IMG/VR virus record: IMGVR_UViG_3300031473_000068
Reading direction: 5' to 3' (one strand)
Length of the DNA stretch: 64,000 nt
DNA from: a virus
Part shown: positions 4,199 through 23,748 of the stretch, in pieces
Layout of the letters: every line of letters begins with the position of its first letter
Position numbering within the stretch: the first letter of the stretch is position 1
The notes under the pieces: model-generated
The model's database searches: none
What the model saw: the letters and a program-made list of their open reading frames with translations, nothing else
Told to the model about the DNA's origin: nothing
Position numbers and translations under genes: made by a program

Positions 4199-5317
4199 AT
4201 GCAGTATTCAATCACCCCGGTGCTTCATCCCTATGCTGATAAGAGCGGTCTTCACAAGTTAAATCTGCAGGTAATATATAATAGAAAGAAGGCTTACGCA
4301 CCTGCAAGTATTAAACTTAAGGAAGAATTTTGGGACAATGGTGTTATTGTTAAGCATCCTAACAGAAAAGTATTTTCGGATCTTCTCAACAAACAAAGAA
4401 ATGAAATTGAAAAACGATTAATTGAAGCTATAAGAGAGAACGCTTCTATCTCAAAGCAACGACTGGGTGAAATAGCCAAGGGTCAGAAAGAGGGAAAACA
4501 AATACTAATCACGGATTTTATTTTTGACCAGGTTAAGCTGCTTAAAGGGAGGCTCACAGAGGGACGGCTTAAACATTACAAGGTAATGGCAGGTAAGATT
4601 GAATATTTCAAAGAGGGTGCGACCTTTCGGGAAATATCAATAACCTGGTTAGGCGAATTTGAGGCATGGTTAAGGTCCAAAGGGCTGCATAGCAATACCG
4701 TACTGAGTAATATGAGTTTGCTCGTAGGAATATTTAATAAAGCTGCCGTTGCCGGCTTAATCAAAAAGGAACAGTTTGCAGGATACAAGCGGCCGCGGTA
4801 TACGCAAAAAATAAGCGAGTACCTTACCGAGGAAGAAATAAATAAACTGTTTGACCTGGTGAAAATTATTGAAAAGCCGGGTCATAAGCTTGCAGGTTAT
4901 TATTATATACTCAGTTGCCTGACAGGTTACCGCCTTAGCGACGCTAAGTCTTTTGATTATAAAAAAAACGTGCAGGACGGAAATTTAATTCTCCAGGCAA
5001 AGAAAAACAAAGCCATTGTTTCTACCCCAATATTTTCGCGGCTTGCTGAAGTGCTCGAGTATATAAAAGACAAACCTTTACATCTCAGTGAGGATAAAAT
5101 ACGGCAGTATATAAAAGAACTGTTTTCTTTAGTGGGTATTAACAAAGATATCTCTTATCATTCTTCCAGGCATAGCTACGCAATGCTTCTTATTAAAAAA
5201 GGATTCAGTATTGACGAGGTTGCCCAGGCTATTGGTGATACAGCGATAGTAGCGAAAGTATATGCCAAAATCAGCAACCCGCATTTACATAAAAAATTCA
5301 AAGAACTTTTAGGGTAA
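4199..5317 (+). CDS. int: Tyrosine recombinase/phage integrase
   Basis: GYRLSD (catalytic R), HSSRH (HxxR), VYAK (catalytic Y); Bacteroidota-type arm and SAM-like N-terminal domains. Confidence 0.93.
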   Translation: MQYSITPVLHPYADKSGLHKLNLQVIYNRKKAYAPASIKLKEEFWDNGVIVKHPNRKVFSDLLNKQRNEIEKRLIEAIRENASISKQRLGEIAKGQKEGKQILITDFIFDQVKLLKGRLTEGRLKHYKVMAGKIEYFKEGATFREISITWLGEFEAWLRSKGLHSNTVLSNMSLLVGIFNKAAVAGLIKKEQFAGYKRPRYTQKISEYLTEEEINKLFDLVKIIEKPGHKLAGYYYILSCLTGYRLSDAKSFDYKKNVQDGNLILQAKKNKAIVSTPIFSRLAEVLEYIKDKPLHLSEDKIRQYIKELFSLVGINKDISYHSSRHSYAMLLIKKGFSIDEVAQAIGDTAIVAKVYAKISNPHLHKKFKELLG

Positions 5318-9287: not shown

Positions 9288-9610
9288 ATGATAAAGACAG
9301 GTTAGAATGGGATATTATGCAATACAATAAAAGGAAAGAAGCCCAGAGGGGGCATAATTACAAGTACTTAACTGATGACCTATGGAATAAATTAATTTCA
9401 GATGGTTATACTGAAACGACTTTTAGTAATGGAGAAAAAACAACGTTTTCAGAAAGTACAGCAGTCGGTGCAGTTCAAGAATTTAAAAGAAAATTTTATT
9501 ATGCTCGTATTATCTGTGTAGCTAATAAGCTAAGGATTAAGCAATATTCAGTTTGGTATAAAAAAGGCGTTCTTCTGCAAACATTAAACCTTAATAGCAA
9601 AAAATCATGA
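9284..9610 (+). CDS. Hypothetical protein
   Basis: ATGA overlaps with both neighbours. Confidence 0.6.
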   Translation: MNDKDRLEWDIMQYNKRKEAQRGHNYKYLTDDLWNKLISDGYTETTFSNGEKTTFSESTAVGAVQEFKRKFYYARIICVANKLRIKQYSVWYKKGVLLQTLNLNSKKS

Positions 9611-9873
9611 ACGGCTTAACCCTCCTGCAACTAAAAAAAGATCACGAAGAATGCCTTGACCTTCTGCGTCAAATGGGGGATAAGAAAAGGCTTATCCGGG
9701 CTGATAAGGATTACTGTAATTATTTCCTTGGTCAGACCGGGTATTGGTCTATTTTAAGAACACAAATGCTTGCTAAAAACGAGGCTGAGCTTGAGGCGCT
9801 GCAGAAGCAATATGAAGATGTGGCATGCGGGATAATTGATAAGATGTTTAAGGTTTTACAAAGTTCTTTTTAA
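9607..9873 (+). CDS. Hypothetical coiled-coil protein
   Basis: 88-aa ORF coupled to upstream gene. Confidence 0.6.
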   Translation: MNGLTLLQLKKDHEECLDLLRQMGDKKRLIRADKDYCNYFLGQTGYWSILRTQMLAKNEAELEALQKQYEDVACGIIDKMFKVLQSSF

Positions 9874-9883
9874 AATAAACATT

Positions 9884-10168
9884 ATGAAATTTATAGTCAG
9901 CAGTTTAGCTATTCGAAAGTTTCTTAAAGAAATTGATCTCGATGTTACGGATGGTGCTCATGAATTAGAAGTTCATATTAAAGAAAGGGAACTTTTTATG
10001 GGTAATAAAAAAATAAGTATTGAATCTTCTTTTGATTCTGATAAAGCTTTTGTAAGCGTTAAATCATTAAGAAAATTAAGTCAGATATGTGGTTTACTTA
10101 AAGAACAACCCATAGTTATTTTATTGGAGACAAATGAATGGATAAATATTCAATCAATAGTTATATAA
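9884..10168 (+). CDS. Hypothetical protein
   Basis: Likely start MKFIVSS. Confidence 0.6.
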   Translation: MKFIVSSLAIRKFLKEIDLDVTDGAHELEVHIKERELFMGNKKISIESSFDSDKAFVSVKSLRKLSQICGLLKEQPIVILLETNEWINIQSIVI

Positions 10169-10171
10169 GAA

Positions 10172-10594
10172 ATGACAACCATAATCATAATTGCCTTACT
10201 AATTAACATAATCGCAACCAGGTTAATTAACGCAAAGCCTAAAGAAAAATGTTGGGTTGACAGAACGGAAAATATTAAAATGACAATCGTAATCACAATT
10301 GTCTTACTCACTCACATAATCCTAAGCTTGTTTTTTAAAGCTAAAGGAAAGCCTAAAGAACAAAAGTATTGGGTTGACAGGCACGGCCGTATGTACGGCG
10401 AAGCAGAAAACAAAGACTATCAGGAAATAAAGAAACTTATTGATAGCTCAGATACGGTTATGAATTTAGATGGTCACCGGCATTCGTTAAGAAGGTATCG
10501 CATGATGTACGGGGATAATGCTTTGTATGAGGAATTGTGGGCAGAGTACGCAGCGCAGATGTGTGTGATTGATTGTTGGAGTGTAAAAAATTAG
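10172..10594 (+). CDS. Membrane protein with two TM-KPKE-WVDR units
   Basis: Internal repeat: TM...KPKEKCWVDR and TM...KPKEQKYWVDR. Confidence 0.55.
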   Translation: MTTIIIIALLINIIATRLINAKPKEKCWVDRTENIKMTIVITIVLLTHIILSLFFKAKGKPKEQKYWVDRHGRMYGEAENKDYQEIKKLIDSSDTVMNLDGHRHSLRRYRMMYGDNALYEELWAEYAAQMCVIDCWSVKN

Positions 10595-10709
10595 TATTGT
10601 AATTGAGATTAGGTAGAACTATTGGCCACACGGTTCATAAATTGTAAGTGCTACCCACAAGCCGAAATCAATTACAGTTTTTTAAAATGACGAATCAAAT
10701 ATTATATGC

Positions 10710-11075
10710 ATGAAGCAGAAAACAATAGAGGTACAAATACCCCTAATGTGTGGTGATGTGCAACTTACTTATATAATTGTTTGTAGAAACAAAAAGCAAG
10801 CCTGTGAATTGCTTGGTATTTCAAGGTATTACCTAAACAATTATGGTTACTGCAATGAGCCAAAAACTTCCGAAGCTATTAAAAATCCGTTTAGCAAGTT
10901 TGCATTTTTTGATAGTGGTTGGTTGAAAGAGTATAAGCCCGAATGGTACAGAAAAGTATTGCCTGCAAACGATATTGAAAACTATATATGGCAAATGAAA
11001 AAACTTTGTGCAGCAAACAAACCAAAGCAAAGTATTAATAATAAACTTGATTCATTTCAGCCCATGTATGTGTAG
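10710..11075 (+). CDS. Hypothetical protein
   Basis: 121-aa ORF. Confidence 0.6.
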   Translation: MKQKTIEVQIPLMCGDVQLTYIIVCRNKKQACELLGISRYYLNNYGYCNEPKTSEAIKNPFSKFAFFDSGWLKEYKPEWYRKVLPANDIENYIWQMKKLCAANKPKQSINNKLDSFQPMYV

Positions 11076-15478: not shown

Positions 15479-15898
15479 ATGCCAGAAATTAAAACAGAAA
15501 AAAAATCACTCAGGTACGATTTCAAAGCGAGAGAGACACATGAAATGTCTATGCAGCTTGCCCAAAAAACTATTGAAGGGGTAGAGATTGAAAATGAATC
15601 TAAAGCTGTGCAATCGCAGTACACCTCGCGACTTAAAGTTGTTAAATCTGAAGTAGGTAAGCTATCCCGGCAAATACAAGACGGTTGGGAACTCAGGGAA
15701 ATAGAGTGTGATATTGAATATCACAAACCTGCTAAAGGTAAAAAGACTATTACCCGCAAGGATAATATGCACGAATGGGTTGAGCCAATGGAAAGCTGGG
15801 AGTGGACGCTTTTCAATCAACCAGAGGATGAAGATGATGCAGTTCAAGAGGCTGAGGTAGTAGTTGAAGATAACGGACCTAAATTATTGGAAAATTAA
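15479..15898 (+). CDS. Conserved phage hypothetical protein
   Basis: 139-aa ORF, coiled coil then acidic tail. Confidence 0.7.
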   Translation: MPEIKTEKKSLRYDFKARETHEMSMQLAQKTIEGVEIENESKAVQSQYTSRLKVVKSEVGKLSRQIQDGWELREIECDIEYHKPAKGKKTITRKDNMHEWVEPMESWEWTLFNQPEDEDDAVQEAEVVVEDNGPKLLEN

Positions 15899-16602
15899 TG
15901 ATAGGCATTTATAAAATAACAAGTCCAATGGGCAGGTTTTACATCGGACAAAGCCGGGATATCGAACGAAGGTTTGCTACTTATAAACGATTAAGCTGCA
16001 AATCTCAACCTAAACTTTACGCCTCGTTGGTTAAGTATGGTGTTAATAATCATTATTTTGAAGTATTGGTTGAATGCGAAGAAAGTGAACTTAATTATTA
16101 CGAAACTTTTTATATCCGCCAAAACCAAAGTTTTAGATCCCAAAACCTGAATTGCAGAATGGACGGGATTTATCAAATGGCGTCCGATGAGACAAGAAAA
16201 AAAATCAGCGAAATTAATAAAGGCAGGGTTGTTTCCGAAGAAACCAGACTAAAATTGAGTTTAAATGCAAAAGGTAAGCCATCGCCGAACAAAGGAAAAA
16301 AGGTGGCACCTGAGATTGTACAAAAGCAAAGGATAAAACTAATTGAAGGAGGAAAAGTTAAAGGGCCTAACAACCCTTTCTACGGTAAGACGCATAGCGA
16401 AGCAAACCTTAGCAAAATGCGCGGTAAATCTAAAGGAGTCGGCGGCTTAAATAATACAGCAAAACTTGTAATTAACACAGAGACGGGAATGTTTTACGAC
16501 TGTATAAAAGATGCTGCTGAGTCAATTCTATTGAAGCCCTACGTTCTTAGTAAAATGCTGAGAGGTGACAGGAAAAACAAAACATCATTTATTTATGCCT
16601 GA
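15898..16602 (+). CDS. GIY-YIG homing endonuclease with NUMOD3 and C-terminal NUMOD1-like motifs
   Basis: GIYKIT...YIGQS; SDETRKKISE/SEETRLKLS repeats; NPFYGKTHS. Confidence 0.88.
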   Translation: MIGIYKITSPMGRFYIGQSRDIERRFATYKRLSCKSQPKLYASLVKYGVNNHYFEVLVECEESELNYYETFYIRQNQSFRSQNLNCRMDGIYQMASDETRKKISEINKGRVVSEETRLKLSLNAKGKPSPNKGKKVAPEIVQKQRIKLIEGGKVKGPNNPFYGKTHSEANLSKMRGKSKGVGGLNNTAKLVINTETGMFYDCIKDAAESILLKPYVLSKMLRGDRKNKTSFIYA

Positions 16603-18157
16603 ACTAAGAATATATCAGCACCGGCTTATTGATGCACTGTCAAAGAAGGCAGCATTAGGCAAAAAAAGGCTTATTGCTCAACTCGCAACAGGCGGAGGTA
16701 AGACCGTGTGTTTTGCCGGATTGATACAAAGATTCTTAATTAAGCAACAAAAGAGGGTTGTAATTATTGTTCATAGGGAAGAGCTTTTAAAGCAAGCGGT
16801 AAGAACACTGTTTGAATGGTATAATATATCTGCGGCTCCTGTTACCGCAGATACAAATTATCTCCCTAATGTTATGGTGTACGTTGGTATGGTAGAAACC
16901 GTCAATAACAGGCTAAAGAAAAATCCTGCATATTTCGGTAATGTCGGATTGCTTATTGCCGACGAATGTCACGTTGGAAATCACAAGAAAGTATATGATT
17001 ATTTTAAAGAATCTATTATAATAGGATTTACTGCGACGCCAATATCCGGAAGCAAAAAAGATCCTCTAAAAAACTACTTTGAAGATATTTGCTGTGGCAT
17101 TGATATTCCCGATTTGATTGCAGAAAGAAGCCTGGTGCAGAACAGGACATACCATATACGAAATATCGAAAGAAAAAACCTTCTTATAAAAAATGGAGAA
17201 TTTGATGAGGCGCAAATGGGCTCTGTTTTTTCATCTTCAAAGCATGTACATAATTGTCTTAAAGCATATCGTGACTATTCAGAAGGTAAAAAGACGATCA
17301 TATTCAATTGCAACATAGCACACTCAAAAAAAGTTAATGATGCTTTTTTGAGTTACGGTTATCCATCCAAGCATTTGGATGGGGAGACCGACCATAAAGA
17401 ACGTGGCGAAATTCTACAGTGGTTTAAAAAAACACCGAATGCCATCTTAAATAATTGTTCAGTACTCACAACAGGATTCGATGAAACATCTATAATAACC
17501 GGAATTATTAACAGGTCAACAATGTCAACTTCCTTGTGGCTGCAGATGGCAGGAAGGATGGCGAGGCCTCACACCGGAAAAGAATATTTCCAAATCATTG
17601 ACATGGGCGGCAATGCTTTGTATCATGGCGACTGGTGCGAAAGCCGTGATTGGTCTGATATATTTTTCAATCCTGAAAAGCCAAAAGGACCCGGTGAAGC
17701 GCCTGTAAAAGCGTGTGTAAGCTGCAATGTCTTAATTCATCTTTCTCAACGAATTTGCCCTCACTGTGGCGCCTTAAACGCCCAGGCCGTTAAGTATGAT
17801 GAAGGTATTGTACAATTCGAACTCCTTTCCAGCCAAAAGCCTATTGATATTAATGTTAAGCAATTGATTGCCGAGCAGGCATGTAAGCTTAAAGCAGATG
17901 GTCAGCCTTACAAAGATATTTCGGTGTTGCACACTATTAAATACAAAATAATTATTCATGCTCAAAGAATTTGGCGGCTTAAAAAGATTGATGATAAGAC
18001 GGCTTATAAGCTTATTGTATTTTATGAGCAGCGCGTAAAAGACTGGGTTGATATCAAAGGTGAAAAGTATGCCTGGTGCAATAATATTGCTAAAGAGTGG
18101 ATGATGGCAGAACTAAAACGGACTTTTGATTGGGAACCGGTAAAATTAACAGCGTGA
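16595..18157 (+). CDS. SF2 DEAD/DEAH helicase (RadD/YejH-like) with zinc finger
   Basis: ATGGGKT, DECH, TATP, QMAGR; CVSC/CPHC. Confidence 0.9.
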   Translation: MPELRIYQHRLIDALSKKAALGKKRLIAQLATGGGKTVCFAGLIQRFLIKQQKRVVIIVHREELLKQAVRTLFEWYNISAAPVTADTNYLPNVMVYVGMVETVNNRLKKNPAYFGNVGLLIADECHVGNHKKVYDYFKESIIIGFTATPISGSKKDPLKNYFEDICCGIDIPDLIAERSLVQNRTYHIRNIERKNLLIKNGEFDEAQMGSVFSSSKHVHNCLKAYRDYSEGKKTIIFNCNIAHSKKVNDAFLSYGYPSKHLDGETDHKERGEILQWFKKTPNAILNNCSVLTTGFDETSIITGIINRSTMSTSLWLQMAGRMARPHTGKEYFQIIDMGGNALYHGDWCESRDWSDIFFNPEKPKGPGEAPVKACVSCNVLIHLSQRICPHCGALNAQAVKYDEGIVQFELLSSQKPIDINVKQLIAEQACKLKADGQPYKDISVLHTIKYKIIIHAQRIWRLKKIDDKTAYKLIVFYEQRVKDWVDIKGEKYAWCNNIAKEWMMAELKRTFDWEPVKLTA

Positions 18158-21073: not shown

Positions 21074-21110
21074 ATGAACGTTGGTAACAATTATAGCTAA
21101 TCCGTCAAAC

Positions 21111-21287
21111 ATGAAAACCTGTATAACCTGCCCGCCTAATGAAGCTTTGAAGCCCTTAACCGATTTCTATATTGATCGCAGCTTTTTTGATAACAGGTCC
21201 AATGTCTGTAAACACTGTACTATCAAAAAGAAAAAGAAATTGTACCGGGATAAAAAGGCAGAGCGGGAAAAGTTTGCGATTATATAA
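21111..21287 (+). CDS. Small CxxC...CxxC protein
   Basis: CITC and CKHC; stop codon lies in the first attC-like inverse core. Confidence 0.6.
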   Translation: MKTCITCPPNEALKPLTDFYIDRSFFDNRSNVCKHCTIKKKKKLYRDKKAEREKFAII

Positions 21288-21417
21288 CGCTCGGCCCGCT
21301 TTGCGATGTGGCGGTATTTGAAAAACATCTGCTCCAAATTTATTCATAACTAAAATAGAATTACAAATGTCACAAACAACTACTTCCGCTGACATATTGC
21401 AAAACGGCATGTTAGCA
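21282..21417 (+). repeat. attC-like site 0
   Basis: ATATAAC...CCGCTTTGCGATGT/ACATATTGCAAAACGG...GTTAGCA. Confidence 0.75.
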
Positions 21418-22089
21418 GAAGCCTTAGTCCACCCGATATTATTTTCAAGTCAAATGGTACAGGCAATTTTACGAGGGAATAAAAGTCAGACGAGACGGGA
21501 GATAAAAGGCTGCAACGATTTTTCACACTCTAAATTAGTTATAGACCCTGAACTATGTGGCGAAGATAAAAACGGGGATATATACCCACTATTATCTAAA
21601 GGACTGCACGTTGATTTTGATTTCGGGGAATGGGTTGTAAAATGTCCTTATGGAAATGTTGGCGATATTCTTTGGGTTAGGGAAACATGGGCAGATAACA
21701 CTGCTTACTTTTTGTATAAAGCAAGTTGTGATAGTGACTTTTATGTTGATGAAAATTACCAAGAAACAAAGGAAAAAATTAAATGGAAGCCTTCGATATT
21801 CATGCCGAAAAAAGCCTGTCGGTTGTTTTTGAAAATTGCTGATATAAAGGTTCAACAATTAAATGATATATCAAACTGGGATGCAATGCAAGAGGGGGCT
21901 TTAATGTCCGATATACCAAAAAAAATATTGTCTAATGAAAATATGGCTAAGAAAATATCACAGAATGGTTTCAAGGTAGCTTTTAGATATGTGTGGGAAA
22001 AAATAAACGGCAAAGACAGTTGGGATAACAACCCGTGCGTATGGGCAATAAGTTTTCAAAAATGTGAACGCCCAAAAGGTTTCTGCTAA
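21367..22089 (+). CDS. ASCH-like/morphogenetic phage protein (cassette A gene)
   Basis: PILFSxxMVQAILxGxKSQTRR, CPYGxxGDxLWVRETW, WKPSIFMP, WDxNPxVW motifs. Confidence 0.75.
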   Translation: MSQTTTSADILQNGMLAEALVHPILFSSQMVQAILRGNKSQTRREIKGCNDFSHSKLVIDPELCGEDKNGDIYPLLSKGLHVDFDFGEWVVKCPYGNVGDILWVRETWADNTAYFLYKASCDSDFYVDENYQETKEKIKWKPSIFMPKKACRLFLKIADIKVQQLNDISNWDAMQEGALMSDIPKKILSNENMAKKISQNGFKVAFRYVWEKINGKDSWDNNPCVWAISFQKCERPKGFC

Positions 22090-22277
22090 CGTTTTAGGGC
22101 TTGGCGAAGAATGGGAATTTGAAATTCGTCCGCCCGGAACAAATGATGATTGAAAAACCAAAAGATGAAGATAACAACAAAAAGCTAAATAGATAATGTC
22201 AAAGCCGGATATACAGCCGAATAGAATTAATGATGTTGAGGATATTTACGTCCGCCCATTTTTTGCCAAACCCAATG
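21412..22277 (+). mobile_element. Integron-like gene cassette A (866 bp)
   Basis: Left end GTTAGCAGAAGCC is complementary to its own inverse core GGTTTCTGCTAAC (12/13). Confidence 0.75.
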
Positions 22278-22283
22278 TTAGCA
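22084..22283 (+). repeat. attC-like site 1
   Basis: TGCTAAC...GGGCTTGGCGAAGAATGGG/CCCATTTTTTGCCAAACCC...GTTAGCA. Confidence 0.8.
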
Positions 22284-22780
22284 GCCGTTGTTTGTCAGTA
22301 GTGCCTTTGAAATTGAAAGAAGCAAACGCATTTGTTGTTAAACATCATCGTCATCATGGGAAGGTTGTCGGTTATCAATTTGCTTTAGGAATTAAATATG
22401 AAAATAAAATTATCGGCGTTGCAATTTGCGGTCGTCCAATTGGAAGATTTTTAGATGACGGAAAGAAGATAGAAGTTCTTCGTCTTTGCATTGTTGAAGG
22501 AATTAAAAACGGCTGTTCAAAACTGTATGCAGCTTGCAGTCGTGTTGCAAAAGAAATGGGCTTTTTAAAAATTATTACTTACACATTACAGTCTGAAAGT
22601 GGTGTGAGTTTGAAAGCAAGTGGATGGCAATTAGAAGAAGAAAATGTCGGCGGTAAAGAATGGAACAGCTCTGTTGGCATCAGTCGCACAAGCGAAGTGT
22701 CTGATTTATTTGGAACTGTTCGCAAATACCCGAATGAAAAAAAGAAACGTTGGTCGAAGTCATTTTACAATGGCTGCTAA
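22196..22780 (+). CDS. XF1762-family (GNAT/Mom-like) protein (cassette B gene)
   Basis: EANAFVxxHHRHH, GVAICGRP, EVxRLC, NGCSKLY, ITYTLxSESGxSLKASGW. Confidence 0.75.
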   Translation: MSKPDIQPNRINDVEDIYVRPFFAKPNVSSRCLSVVPLKLKEANAFVVKHHRHHGKVVGYQFALGIKYENKIIGVAICGRPIGRFLDDGKKIEVLRLCIVEGIKNGCSKLYAACSRVAKEMGFLKIITYTLQSESGVSLKASGWQLEEENVGGKEWNSSVGISRTSEVSDLFGTVRKYPNEKKKRWSKSFYNGC

Positions 22781-22903
22781 CGTTTCAGCATTGCAAAAAG
22801 CAGGGAAATAGGAATACGCCTGCCCGATGCGATTTGTACAAAAGTTCATTAGTATTCCCATTGCTCAAAGCACAACGTCAGCCCTGCTTTTTGCAATGCC
22901 CTG
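22278..22903 (+). mobile_element. Integron-like gene cassette B (626 bp)
   Basis: Left end GTTAGCAGCCGTTG is complementary to CAATGGCTGCTAAC (13/14). Confidence 0.8.
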
Positions 22904-22909
22904 TTAGCG
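22775..22909 (+). repeat. attC-like site 2
   Basis: TGCTAAC, perfect 18-bp stem GCATTGCAAAAAGCAGGG/CCCTGCTTTTTGCAATGC, GTTAGCG. Confidence 0.85.
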
Positions 22910-23368
22910 GCTGTTAAATTTTGTCAATTATGTATGATTACGAAAATCAAGAACACTATGATTATGAAATGAATTGTCAAGCCGAAGCGGAAGCCGAAAT
23001 GGAGGCTATGCAAGCAGATGCAGATGCACAAGATGAACAGGACAAAATAGAGGCAGAAAGGGAAGCGGCTGATATGGAAATTGAGAACATAAATAATCGG
23101 ATTTATCAACTCCAAGACGAGTTAGATGATTTGAGATTTAGAAAACATGAAATTTTACGAAGTGTCCCTTAATAGCCGCTAACGTTCGGCGGCTTGCTGC
23201 TGGTTTTGAATTTAAAAATATAAATATGAGAACAAGAGTTGAATGGGTATCTGCTGCCCAAATTGAAGCAGAAAGACGGGTCAAAATGACGGAAGCTGGA
23301 TATGAAGTTGGGTTTGTTCATGGAGTTGATTGGATGTTCCGTCAGCAAAAATTGCAGCAAACCGGTTG
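22904..23368 (+). mobile_element. Integron-like gene cassette C (465 bp)
   Basis: Left end GTTAGCGGCTGTTAA is complementary to TTAATAGCCGCTAAC (14/15). Confidence 0.8.
22930..23172 (+). CDS. Highly acidic helical protein (cassette C gene)
   Basis: 80 aa with 25 D/E versus 7 K/R by manual count. Confidence 0.7.
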   Translation: MYDYENQEHYDYEMNCQAEAEAEMEAMQADADAQDEQDKIEAEREAADMEIENINNRIYQLQDELDDLRFRKHEILRSVP

Positions 23369-23374
23369 TTCTAA
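23177..23374 (+). repeat. attC-like site 3
   Basis: CGCTAAC...CGGCTTGCTGC/GCAGCAAACCG...GTTCTAA. Confidence 0.75.
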
Positions 23375-23528
23375 GCTGCGGGAATTGTTAGTACAAGAGT
23401 TGAATAGAATTATTGAAGTGACTGCACCTTACACTGAAAGCAGGCATGAAATAGTAAGATTAATTGAATACGGAGCATCTTTGGAAAGGGTTATAGTGCT
23501 GATGGATGCTCTTCCGCCCGTTGCTTAG
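23226..23528 (+). CDS. Hypothetical protein (cassette D gene, start inside attC3)
   Basis: 100-aa ORF with TAG stop inside the inverse core GCTTAGAAC. Confidence 0.6.
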   Translation: MRTRVEWVSAAQIEAERRVKMTEAGYEVGFVHGVDWMFRQQKLQQTGCSKLRELLVQELNRIIEVTAPYTESRHEIVRLIEYGASLERVIVLMDALPPVA

Positions 23529-23531
23529 AAC
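23369..23531 (+). mobile_element. Integron-like gene cassette D (its attC truncated after the inverse core)
   Basis: Left end GTTCTAAGCTGCGGG is complementary to CCCGTTGCTTAGAAC (13/15); no downstream stem found. Confidence 0.65.
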
Positions 23532-23748
23532 TAGTTAATATAAGACACTATGAACATTCAACTCATTGAAAAACAAAAGAAAAAATATAGGCTAAATATT
23601 AATGGCAACGATTGCTTTATTTATACCACTTGATTTATTTATAACGGGACTATTTCCTGTAAAAAAGATGTGAGGTTAATGGCTCACTTGGTTGGTATGT
23701 TAACAGAAAGTTCATTAGTTATAATAAAATAAAGAAGGCAATAAGAAA

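Follow-up and report, generated by a model that had tools for sequence, protein, structure and literature searches.

A prophage array of integron-type cassettes that appear to carry start codons within their own recombination sites

We describe a compact array of four small genes at 21286-23531 (plus strand) in a Bacteroidota-type prophage, taken from IMG/VR record IMGVR_UViG_3300031473_000068; the 64,000-nucleotide (nt) stretch analysed is termed the window below, and all positions follow its numbering. We propose, with a probability of roughly 0.7, that this array, which sits in the early region of the prophage, is an integrase-less series of four integron-type cassettes that are arranged back to front relative to their bacterial counterparts and that carry their own translation starts in the loops of their sites. 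The case is built on four observations: the anatomy of the array, the membership of its sites in a wider family, the positions of junctions in related arrays, and an inversion of strand between the arrays of phages and those of bacteria.

Under this proposal, each cassette would begin directly after the stop of the previous gene, at a crossover of the form TAA/C (here and below a slash marks the point of exchange), and would then run through a 5' arm, a loop, a 3' arm, a GTT core and the gene body, to finish in a stop of its own within the AAC core that follows. For three of the four cassettes, the ATG of the gene would lie in the A-rich, unpaired loop, from which a ribosome would read the 3' arm and GTT core as a leader of 14-47 codons before entering the conserved protein. 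Which frame (1, 2 or 3) is used for the core would be an accident of cassette history, with selection seeming to act on the open frame from loop ATG to gene and not on the peptide. Since each unit would possess its own start, and since the TAA of its neighbour would stay intact, reordering could not shift frames or swap N-termini; excision, insertion and reordering would all leave every N-terminus and every frame unchanged.

Anatomy of the array

Each of the four genes stands behind an imperfect inverted repeat that opens at the stop of the preceding open reading frame (ORF), in TAAC or TAGAAC, and closes in GTTAGC or GTTCTAAGC. Their products are a phrog_874-family protein, a Mom-like / XF1762-family protein, a coiled-coil protein of 80 amino acids (aa) and an orphan of 100 aa. 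The components of the array are as follows.

21081-21287, plus strand: Zn-ribbon ORF, whose stop TATAA/C forms the left boundary of the array
21286-21417, plus strand: attC-like site S1, comprising AAC, 5' arm, loop with ATG 21367, 3' arm and GTTAGCA; weak fold
21288-22089, plus strand: cassette 1, S1 plus the phrog_874-family ORF 21367-22089, with its stop TAA within GCTAAC
22088-22283, plus strand: attC-like site S2, of a class about 190 nt long
22090-22780, plus strand: cassette 2, S2 plus the Mom-like / XF1762-family ORF 22196-22780, with a conserved domain from about residue 32
22779-22909, plus strand: attC-like site S3, with an 18-bp perfect stem (22788-22805 / 22882-22899)
22781-23182, plus strand: cassette 3, S3 plus ORF 22930-23172 for the 80-aa coiled-coil protein, with its start 27 nt past GTT
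23181-23374, plus strand: attC-like site S4, of the class of about 190 nt, with arms 23190-23208 / 23346-23364 and 3' core GTTCTAAGC
23183-23530, plus strand: cassette 4, S4 plus ORF 23226-23528 (100 aa), with right boundary GCTTAGAA/C

As an initial annotation of the array had reported, the ORFs at 21367, 22196 and 23226 each have their ATG within the loop of an attC-like hairpin and read on through its 3' arm (ORFs and arms were both rechecked), and recomputing the codon position of the crossover G returned the same values, namely 3 (21411), 1 (22277) and 2 (23368). Its statements that cassettes 2 and 4 have no ATG of their own beyond the site, and that cassette 3 has one at 22930, past its hairpin, likewise hold: after GTT the Mom-like ORF offers TTG 22292 and GTG 22301 only, and the ORF at 23226 only TTG and GTG. 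ORF 21367-22089 begins MSQTTTSADILQNGMLAEA and has a second in-frame ATG at 21409-21411, right on GTT; both ATGs may be used. The leader of ORF 22196-22780 contains ...FFAKPNVSSRC, and that of ORF 23226-23528, nearly half of which lies inside S4, contains ...QKLQQTGCSKL. No ATG-led ORF runs through S3.

The sites resemble attC in several respects. GCTAAC is paired with GTTAGC at three junctions and TATAAC with GTTAGC at S1, while cassette 4 is flanked by the core pair GCTTAGAAC / GTTCTAAGC; the match to the attC cores RYYYAAC / GTTRRRY is approximate, the third R of GTTRRRY being C. Imperfect L''/L' arms, an unpaired spacer between arms and cores, and folding as a single strand are all present. 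The single-strand fold of S3 is pronounced (z = -4.7 to -6, a 6/3-nt bulge with the 18-bp stem) and that of S4 moderate (z = -2.9), and the cores of S2 and S4 are closed in the minimum-energy fold. At S1, the site pair scores 11 on the plus strand versus 9.5 on the minus strand. A comparison aimed at the extrahelical bases that govern strand choice in attC showed no more than a wobble/mismatch asymmetry between the arms throughout the family, and the stem of S3 was perfect. The arrangement as a whole exceeds chance: GTTAGCRGC has exact matches at the four gene ends only in the entire 64 kb, and in every gene the first 12-13 nt after G/TT are the reverse complement of the last 12-13 nt of that same gene, with one mismatch; complementary ends of this kind are a hallmark of integron-type cassettes.

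A site-pair scan detected no attC-like site upstream of the Zn-ribbon boundary, and a proposed fifth site at 23523-23705 was rejected, as it has no fold. Rfam holds no family matching the sites. We found neither intI nor attI next to the array, which is integrase-less: the only tyrosine recombinase of the window, the phage integrase encoded at 4199-5317, reaches 30.7 bits against the 265-bit cut-off of TIGR02249. A protein search with the 100-aa ORF at 23226 returned no homologue, a DNA search of the phage database returned matches to the methyltransferase only, and a search for related loci with the phrog_874 protein returned no relative in viral contigs.

Where the cassette borders lie

What moves as a unit is indicated by P0004, a 247-aa phrog_874 homologue with a 20-aa leader ending V-S-R-S, which is the GTTAGCAGAAGC core read in a frame other than that of the window. 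P0004 is present on at least 24 contigs. Across 8 of these its neighbours vary, with 4 kinds upstream and at least 4 downstream, and its leader is identical in the four unrelated upstream contexts. The block shared by these contigs (about 820 nt, 99-100% identical) extends from just past the upstream AAC to 2 nt beyond the TAA of P0004, and holds the entire hairpin, ATG, leader and gene.

A wider survey of junctions, defined as the ends of shared blocks at least 93% identical among 138 fetched loci, produced the same picture. Twenty-six ends coincide with the AAC end of a detected site and none (0) with the GTT end, while 5 fall just inside the 5' arm; the remaining ends fall at places left unannotated by the detector, several of which are AAC ends by eye, and the junctions represent roughly a dozen independent ones. 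In a Chitinophagaceae array of the same family, one site stands behind four different left-hand cores, indicating that crossover is at AAC there too. In these relatives, as at attC, crossover thus falls within the AAC/GTT triplet.

Because block ends lie at AAC and none lie at GTT, hairpin, ATG, leader and gene move together in these relatives, and the moving unit is a site plus its gene, with crossover at AA/C on the coding strand. In the classical layout, a gene is linked to a downstream attC and is sense on the canonical top strand, whereas here the gene is linked to the upstream site. An order-dependent fusion, moreover, would draw its leader from a mobile unit other than that of the gene, whereas here an identical leader accompanies the P0004 gene in all four contexts. 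We infer that the same junction rule governs the four cassettes of the window.

An IS605-family TnpB gene directly adjoins the P0004-containing array of contig L008 (121-1293); in its place, sister contigs have a NUMOD3 homing-endonuclease gene.

Site family, recombinase and strand inversion

The arms of S2 are GGCTTGGCGAAG and TTTTGCCAAACC, and a pattern scan located about 34 sites sharing them in viral contigs and 38 in Bacteroidota genomes; patterns of 14-15 bases make many chance matches in GC-rich genomes, and matches were kept only where a matching 3' arm was present. The bacterial hosts include Chitinophagaceae, Ferruginibacter, Flavobacterium, Mucilaginibacter, Riemerella and others. 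An alignment of S2 with sites of a Ferruginibacter array covers all 190 nt, the loop among them (72-78% identity), and copies of S3 that are about 80% identical stand ahead of unrelated genes on viral contigs.

One Chitinophagaceae genome has an array of about 20 sites over 9 kb, with the gene of a 407-aa tyrosine recombinase about 450 nt from its end, and a Ferruginibacter genome is laid out in the same way beside its recombinase gene. These dense chromosomal arrays lie within 1-10815 of L260 and 1-10749 of L262, which are Chitinophagaceae and Ferruginibacter metagenome-assembled genomes, respectively, with recombinases of about 410 aa, that of L262 being encoded at 9514-10749; the Ferruginibacter array carries inserted IS30 and IS110 transposases. 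The array recombinase scores 200-210 bits with NF040815 (tyrosine recombinase/integron integrase; cut-off 220) and 181-183 bits with TIGR02249 (cut-off 265), and gives no match over the IntI-specific insertion of the catalytic domain, at TIGR02249 model positions of about 181-238. Both scores fall short of the curated values, and the nearest solved relatives of the enzyme are XerA (5hxy) and IntI4 (2a3v).

Arrays of this family adjoin an Xer/IntI-like gene in two bacterial genomes and also in two phage contigs. On the latter (169 kb and 90 kb) lies a gene for a homologous enzyme of 276-301 aa, 38-39% identical to the bacterial recombinase; the gene is situated 0.8-1 kb past the last site and co-oriented with the cassette genes. 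The stretches 424-10507 of L265 (the 169-kb contig; 11-12 sites, with the recombinase gene at 9695-10507) and 190-4567 of L263 (6 sites) are candidates for complete "phage integrons". Recombination is probably performed by such an Xer/IntI-like enzyme, which is absent from the window.

When the long ORFs flanking confirmed sites are counted by site polarity, the two groups separate: 33 plus to 4 minus in viruses, 10 plus to 36 minus in bacteria. In bacterial arrays, cassette genes lie on the strand opposite to that bearing GGCTTGGCGAAG as its 5' arm and point away from the recombinase gene, as in canonical integrons. In phage arrays, including that of the window, they lie on the strand with GGCTTGGCGAAG as 5' arm. 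Judged by these strands, phage cassettes appear to be mirror images of integron cassettes, and the inversion within one site family hints at two cassette pools served by one recombination chemistry.

A more general proposition, on which our own confidence is evenly balanced, is that Bacteroidota phages maintain a mirror-image cassette pool of their own, with the site at the 5' end and the folding strand as the sense strand. A loop ATG in A-rich context would have evolved in about half of these cassettes, so that each would be a self-contained translation unit that can be placed anywhere in a phage operon. A small Xer/IntI-like recombinase that lacks the IntI insertion, encoded directly after the array in some phages, would serve this pool, and the cargo would include DNA-modification genes (Mom-like, methyltransferases) and a Tad3-family gene. 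The last of these (PF25185; L009 5297-5887) is a cassette just upstream of a Mom-like cassette in a related array, and fits a counter-defence flavour of the cargo.

Are the leaders translated?

Sites of the family fall into length classes, one of about 115 nt with a conserved ATG 41-42 nt before GTT and one of about 83 nt without an ATG. Wherever a long-class cassette has a long ORF (11 of 11), that ORF is in frame with the loop ATG, a spacing of 42 placing the G at codon position 1 and a spacing of 41 at position 3. P0045 illustrates how frame is kept: it reads the GTTAGCAGAAGC core as V-S-R-S where the gene of the window reads M-L-A-E-A, yet the two share the following L-V-H-P-I-L-F, being a 1-nt indel apart and each in frame with its loop ATG. 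Three homologues (P0004, P0045 and the Mom-like P0126) lack any ATG, GTG or TTG in the stretch from GTT to the conserved domain, and 12 Mom-like homologues have open leaders of 12-50 codons even though the loop part is unalignable. In the 11-cassette phage array beside a recombinase, 6 cassettes start within their own site. Among 25 stringently detected, de-duplicated cassettes with an ORF reading through the core, an in-frame loop ATG is found in 18, 7 of which have no nearby alternative start.

The three loop ATGs of the window lie in A-rich sequence, two of them with A at -3, and ATG 22196 is unpaired in the predicted fold (DNA parameters). Bacteroidetes make no use of Shine-Dalgarno sequences, and initiation there relies on unstructured mRNA and an A at -3 (PMC6847099), a pattern that the A-rich loop ATGs and the unpaired ATG 22196 fit. 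ATG 21409 and TTG 22292, on the other hand, have neither an unpaired or A-rich context nor an A at -3. We infer that translation does begin at the loop ATGs; the leaders look translated, and the comparative evidence favours their being read as protein N-termini.

What the leaders encode seems to matter little. The conserved leader ends A-K-P-x-V, M-L-A-E-A and N-R-I-T are translations of conserved DNA, namely the 3' arm GCCAAACC, the core and the loop motif AATAGAATTAC. The last is read N-R-I-T in some cassettes and S-I-E-L in others, and with one DNA motif being read in more than one frame, the peptide is most likely a tolerated by-product, with selection on the open frame only. A role as a capsid-targeting or signal peptide was rejected on the same ground. 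Bacterial copies of S2 have AGAATTACGTC where the window has AGATAATGTCA, the phage copy thus having gained its ATG through point changes.

Two further features of the sites may be recorded here. The motif AATAGAATTAC occurs at 21346-21357, 22180-22190 and 22222-22231 of the window, and also in long-class loops of L058, L074, L081 and others; often it is present twice, as a direct repeat flanking the ATG, and it is kept whatever the frame and in bacterial copies too. It may be a protein-binding site or a promoter element; by eye, no Bacteroidetes promoter was convincingly recognised in the loops. Secondly, many sites in L020-L138 (e.g. L058, L074) have GTTATG as gene-side core and CATAAC as stop-side core, a palindromic core that encodes ATG as well as TAA, which gives some cassettes two or three built-in alternative starts in different frames.

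Alternative explanations

Several findings weigh against the proposal of back-to-front cassettes with their own starts. S1 and S2 fold weakly as isolated strands, and the candidate recombinase beside related arrays falls below the curated integron-integrase cut-off. One junction (L001 versus L003) lies about 25 nt past GTT, so that exchange is not always at AAC, and no near-identical relative of the four cassettes of the window was found, so that their borders follow from the rule of the family. In addition, PHROG/Pfam profiles start at residue 15 (ATG 21409) and at about residue 32 (TTG 22292), and most family members have no leader, which makes shorter products possible. In P0013, a GTG stands at the very position at which many homologues start (MKPILFST), and some called leaders are thus possibly over-extended.

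The last of these findings also support the idea that the leaders are artefacts of gene calling, the true starts being at or after GTT (ATG 21409, TTG 22292 or GTG 22301, and a TTG or GTG in cassette 4) and the loop ATGs incidental. Further support comes from the majority of homologues, which start 2-6 residues ahead of the conserved PILFS or P-x-x-L-K motifs, and from the ATG/TTA found at the crossover in several cassettes, where R' is often GTTATG. However, several homologues have no alternative start codon, the loop ATG is in frame in all 11 of the long-class cassettes considered, with indels that preserve the frame, and the leaders have remained open while their loop parts changed beyond alignment. 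Moreover, the internal candidate starts stand in poor context, and we consider an artefact improbable.

Alternatively, the repeats could act as hairpins in the mRNA of a phage operon, controlling its stability, processing or translation, with modules swapped by ordinary homologous recombination at these conserved linkers. In phages, the sense strand pairs better than its complement when G-T wobbles are counted, and the mRNA would accordingly fold; the loops hold the conserved motif AATAGAATTAC, and one junction falls outside the cores. Nevertheless, the same site family forms dense arrays by a tyrosine recombinase gene in bacteria and on two phage contigs, the bacterial genes lie on the other strand, where the element cannot be a sense-mRNA signal, and junctions are sharply localised at AAC. 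This makes the mRNA reading decidedly unlikely as a full account, while a role for the RNA in phages could exist alongside recombination.

Least tenable, and in our view very improbable, is the scheme of the initial annotation, in which the hairpin belongs to the preceding cassette, crossover is at G/TT on the coding strand, and the donated ATG and leader turn cassette order into a switch of frame or N-terminus: although in classical integrons each gene has its own attC behind it, S3-type hairpins precede unrelated genes, L009 has a hairpin about 90% like that of P0004, with a similar leader, joined at GTTAGC to an unrelated 165-aa gene, and class 1 integrons do have position-dependent fusions such as gcuF1-blaOXA-28 (PMC8876359), like hairpins on unlike genes are expected in a homogeneous attC family without any crossover at GTT, and a donated leader is contradicted by the 26 to 0 distribution of recent junctions and by a P0004 leader and gene that stay identical behind four different neighbours. 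What survives of that scheme is the suggestion that an attC-like site supplies the start and an N-terminal peptide, which the comparative data favour; that these are borrowed from the cassette in front conflicts with junctions at AA/C, beside the previous stop. That annotation had also named the occurrence of one leader on homologues elsewhere as a refutation, and P0004 shows just this. A translational switch by cassette order would be a new regulatory principle if true, yet the data presented here argue against it.

Genomic context of the array

Beyond the array, the window contains replication genes and the following landmarks, with DUF1064 and zinc-finger genes downstream of the array.

4199-5317: arm-binding tyrosine phage integrase
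20246-21073: DNA methyltransferase
25815: small terminase, with structural genes beyond it

An ORF at 15898-16602 encodes a GIY-YIG endonuclease of group I intron type (TIGR01453, 99.6 bits) and runs into the beginning of the helicase ORF (16565-18157); it is a possible homing endonuclease, either free-standing or intron-borne. Among sequencing runs listed for this DNA, two were DNA runs from a rock metagenome, its probable source, and none was an RNA run.

Comparison with known systems

If the proposal of self-starting cassettes is correct, a recombination site serving also as 5' leader, start codon and N-terminal coding sequence would make phage cassettes competent for expression without a Pc promoter or a Shine-Dalgarno sequence. 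A practical consequence is that gene callers will assign such proteins variable N-terminal extensions, which is relevant to anyone expressing these genes. Hardly any complete integrons are recorded for Bacteroidetes in published surveys (PMC9024848), and the present site family, together with its Xer-like recombinase, is possibly missed by current tools. Our literature search found no paper on phage cassettes that start inside their own hairpin.

Clusters of attC sites without an integrase (CALINs) have been described in phage genomes (Qi et al. 2023; PMC9892861). The array of the window is like these and like integron cassettes in its AAC and GTT cores, its imperfect inverted arms with unpaired spacer, its complementary cassette ends, its stops within the core, its integrase-less state in a phage and its DNA-modification cargo. 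In contrast to integron cassettes, its genes lie on the strand that is antisense in related bacterial arrays, so that each site precedes its own gene and would hold the start codon of that gene. Two of its sites are about 190 nt long, whereas attC sites usually measure 57-141 nt, and, unlike IntI systems, the related arrays are accompanied by an Xer/IntI-like recombinase that scores below cut-off and has no match over the IntI insertion.

The attI1 ORF-11 leader is an example of upstream-supplied initiation in class 1 integrons. These integrons also provide a position-dependent translational fusion, gcuF1-blaOXA-28 (reviewed in PMC8876359, section 3.3). The phage cassettes resemble both, in that sequence upstream of a cassette gene gives initiation or an N-terminal extension. 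In the class 1 cases, however, the donor is another cassette or attI and the effect depends on position, whereas here the donor would be the cassette's own site, independently of position.

Inverted cassettes with their own promoters, for example toxin-antitoxin cassettes, are present in sedentary chromosomal integrons. To our knowledge, such cassettes are a minority scattered through canonical arrays, and we know of no report of an ORF start inside attC among them. Cassette-borne promoters have been reviewed (PMC8876359). Like these inverted cassettes, the phage cassettes carry a gene against the canonical direction and would be expressed independently of Pc; unlike them, the phage arrays are inverted in their entirety, and an ATG appears to have arisen in the site loop.

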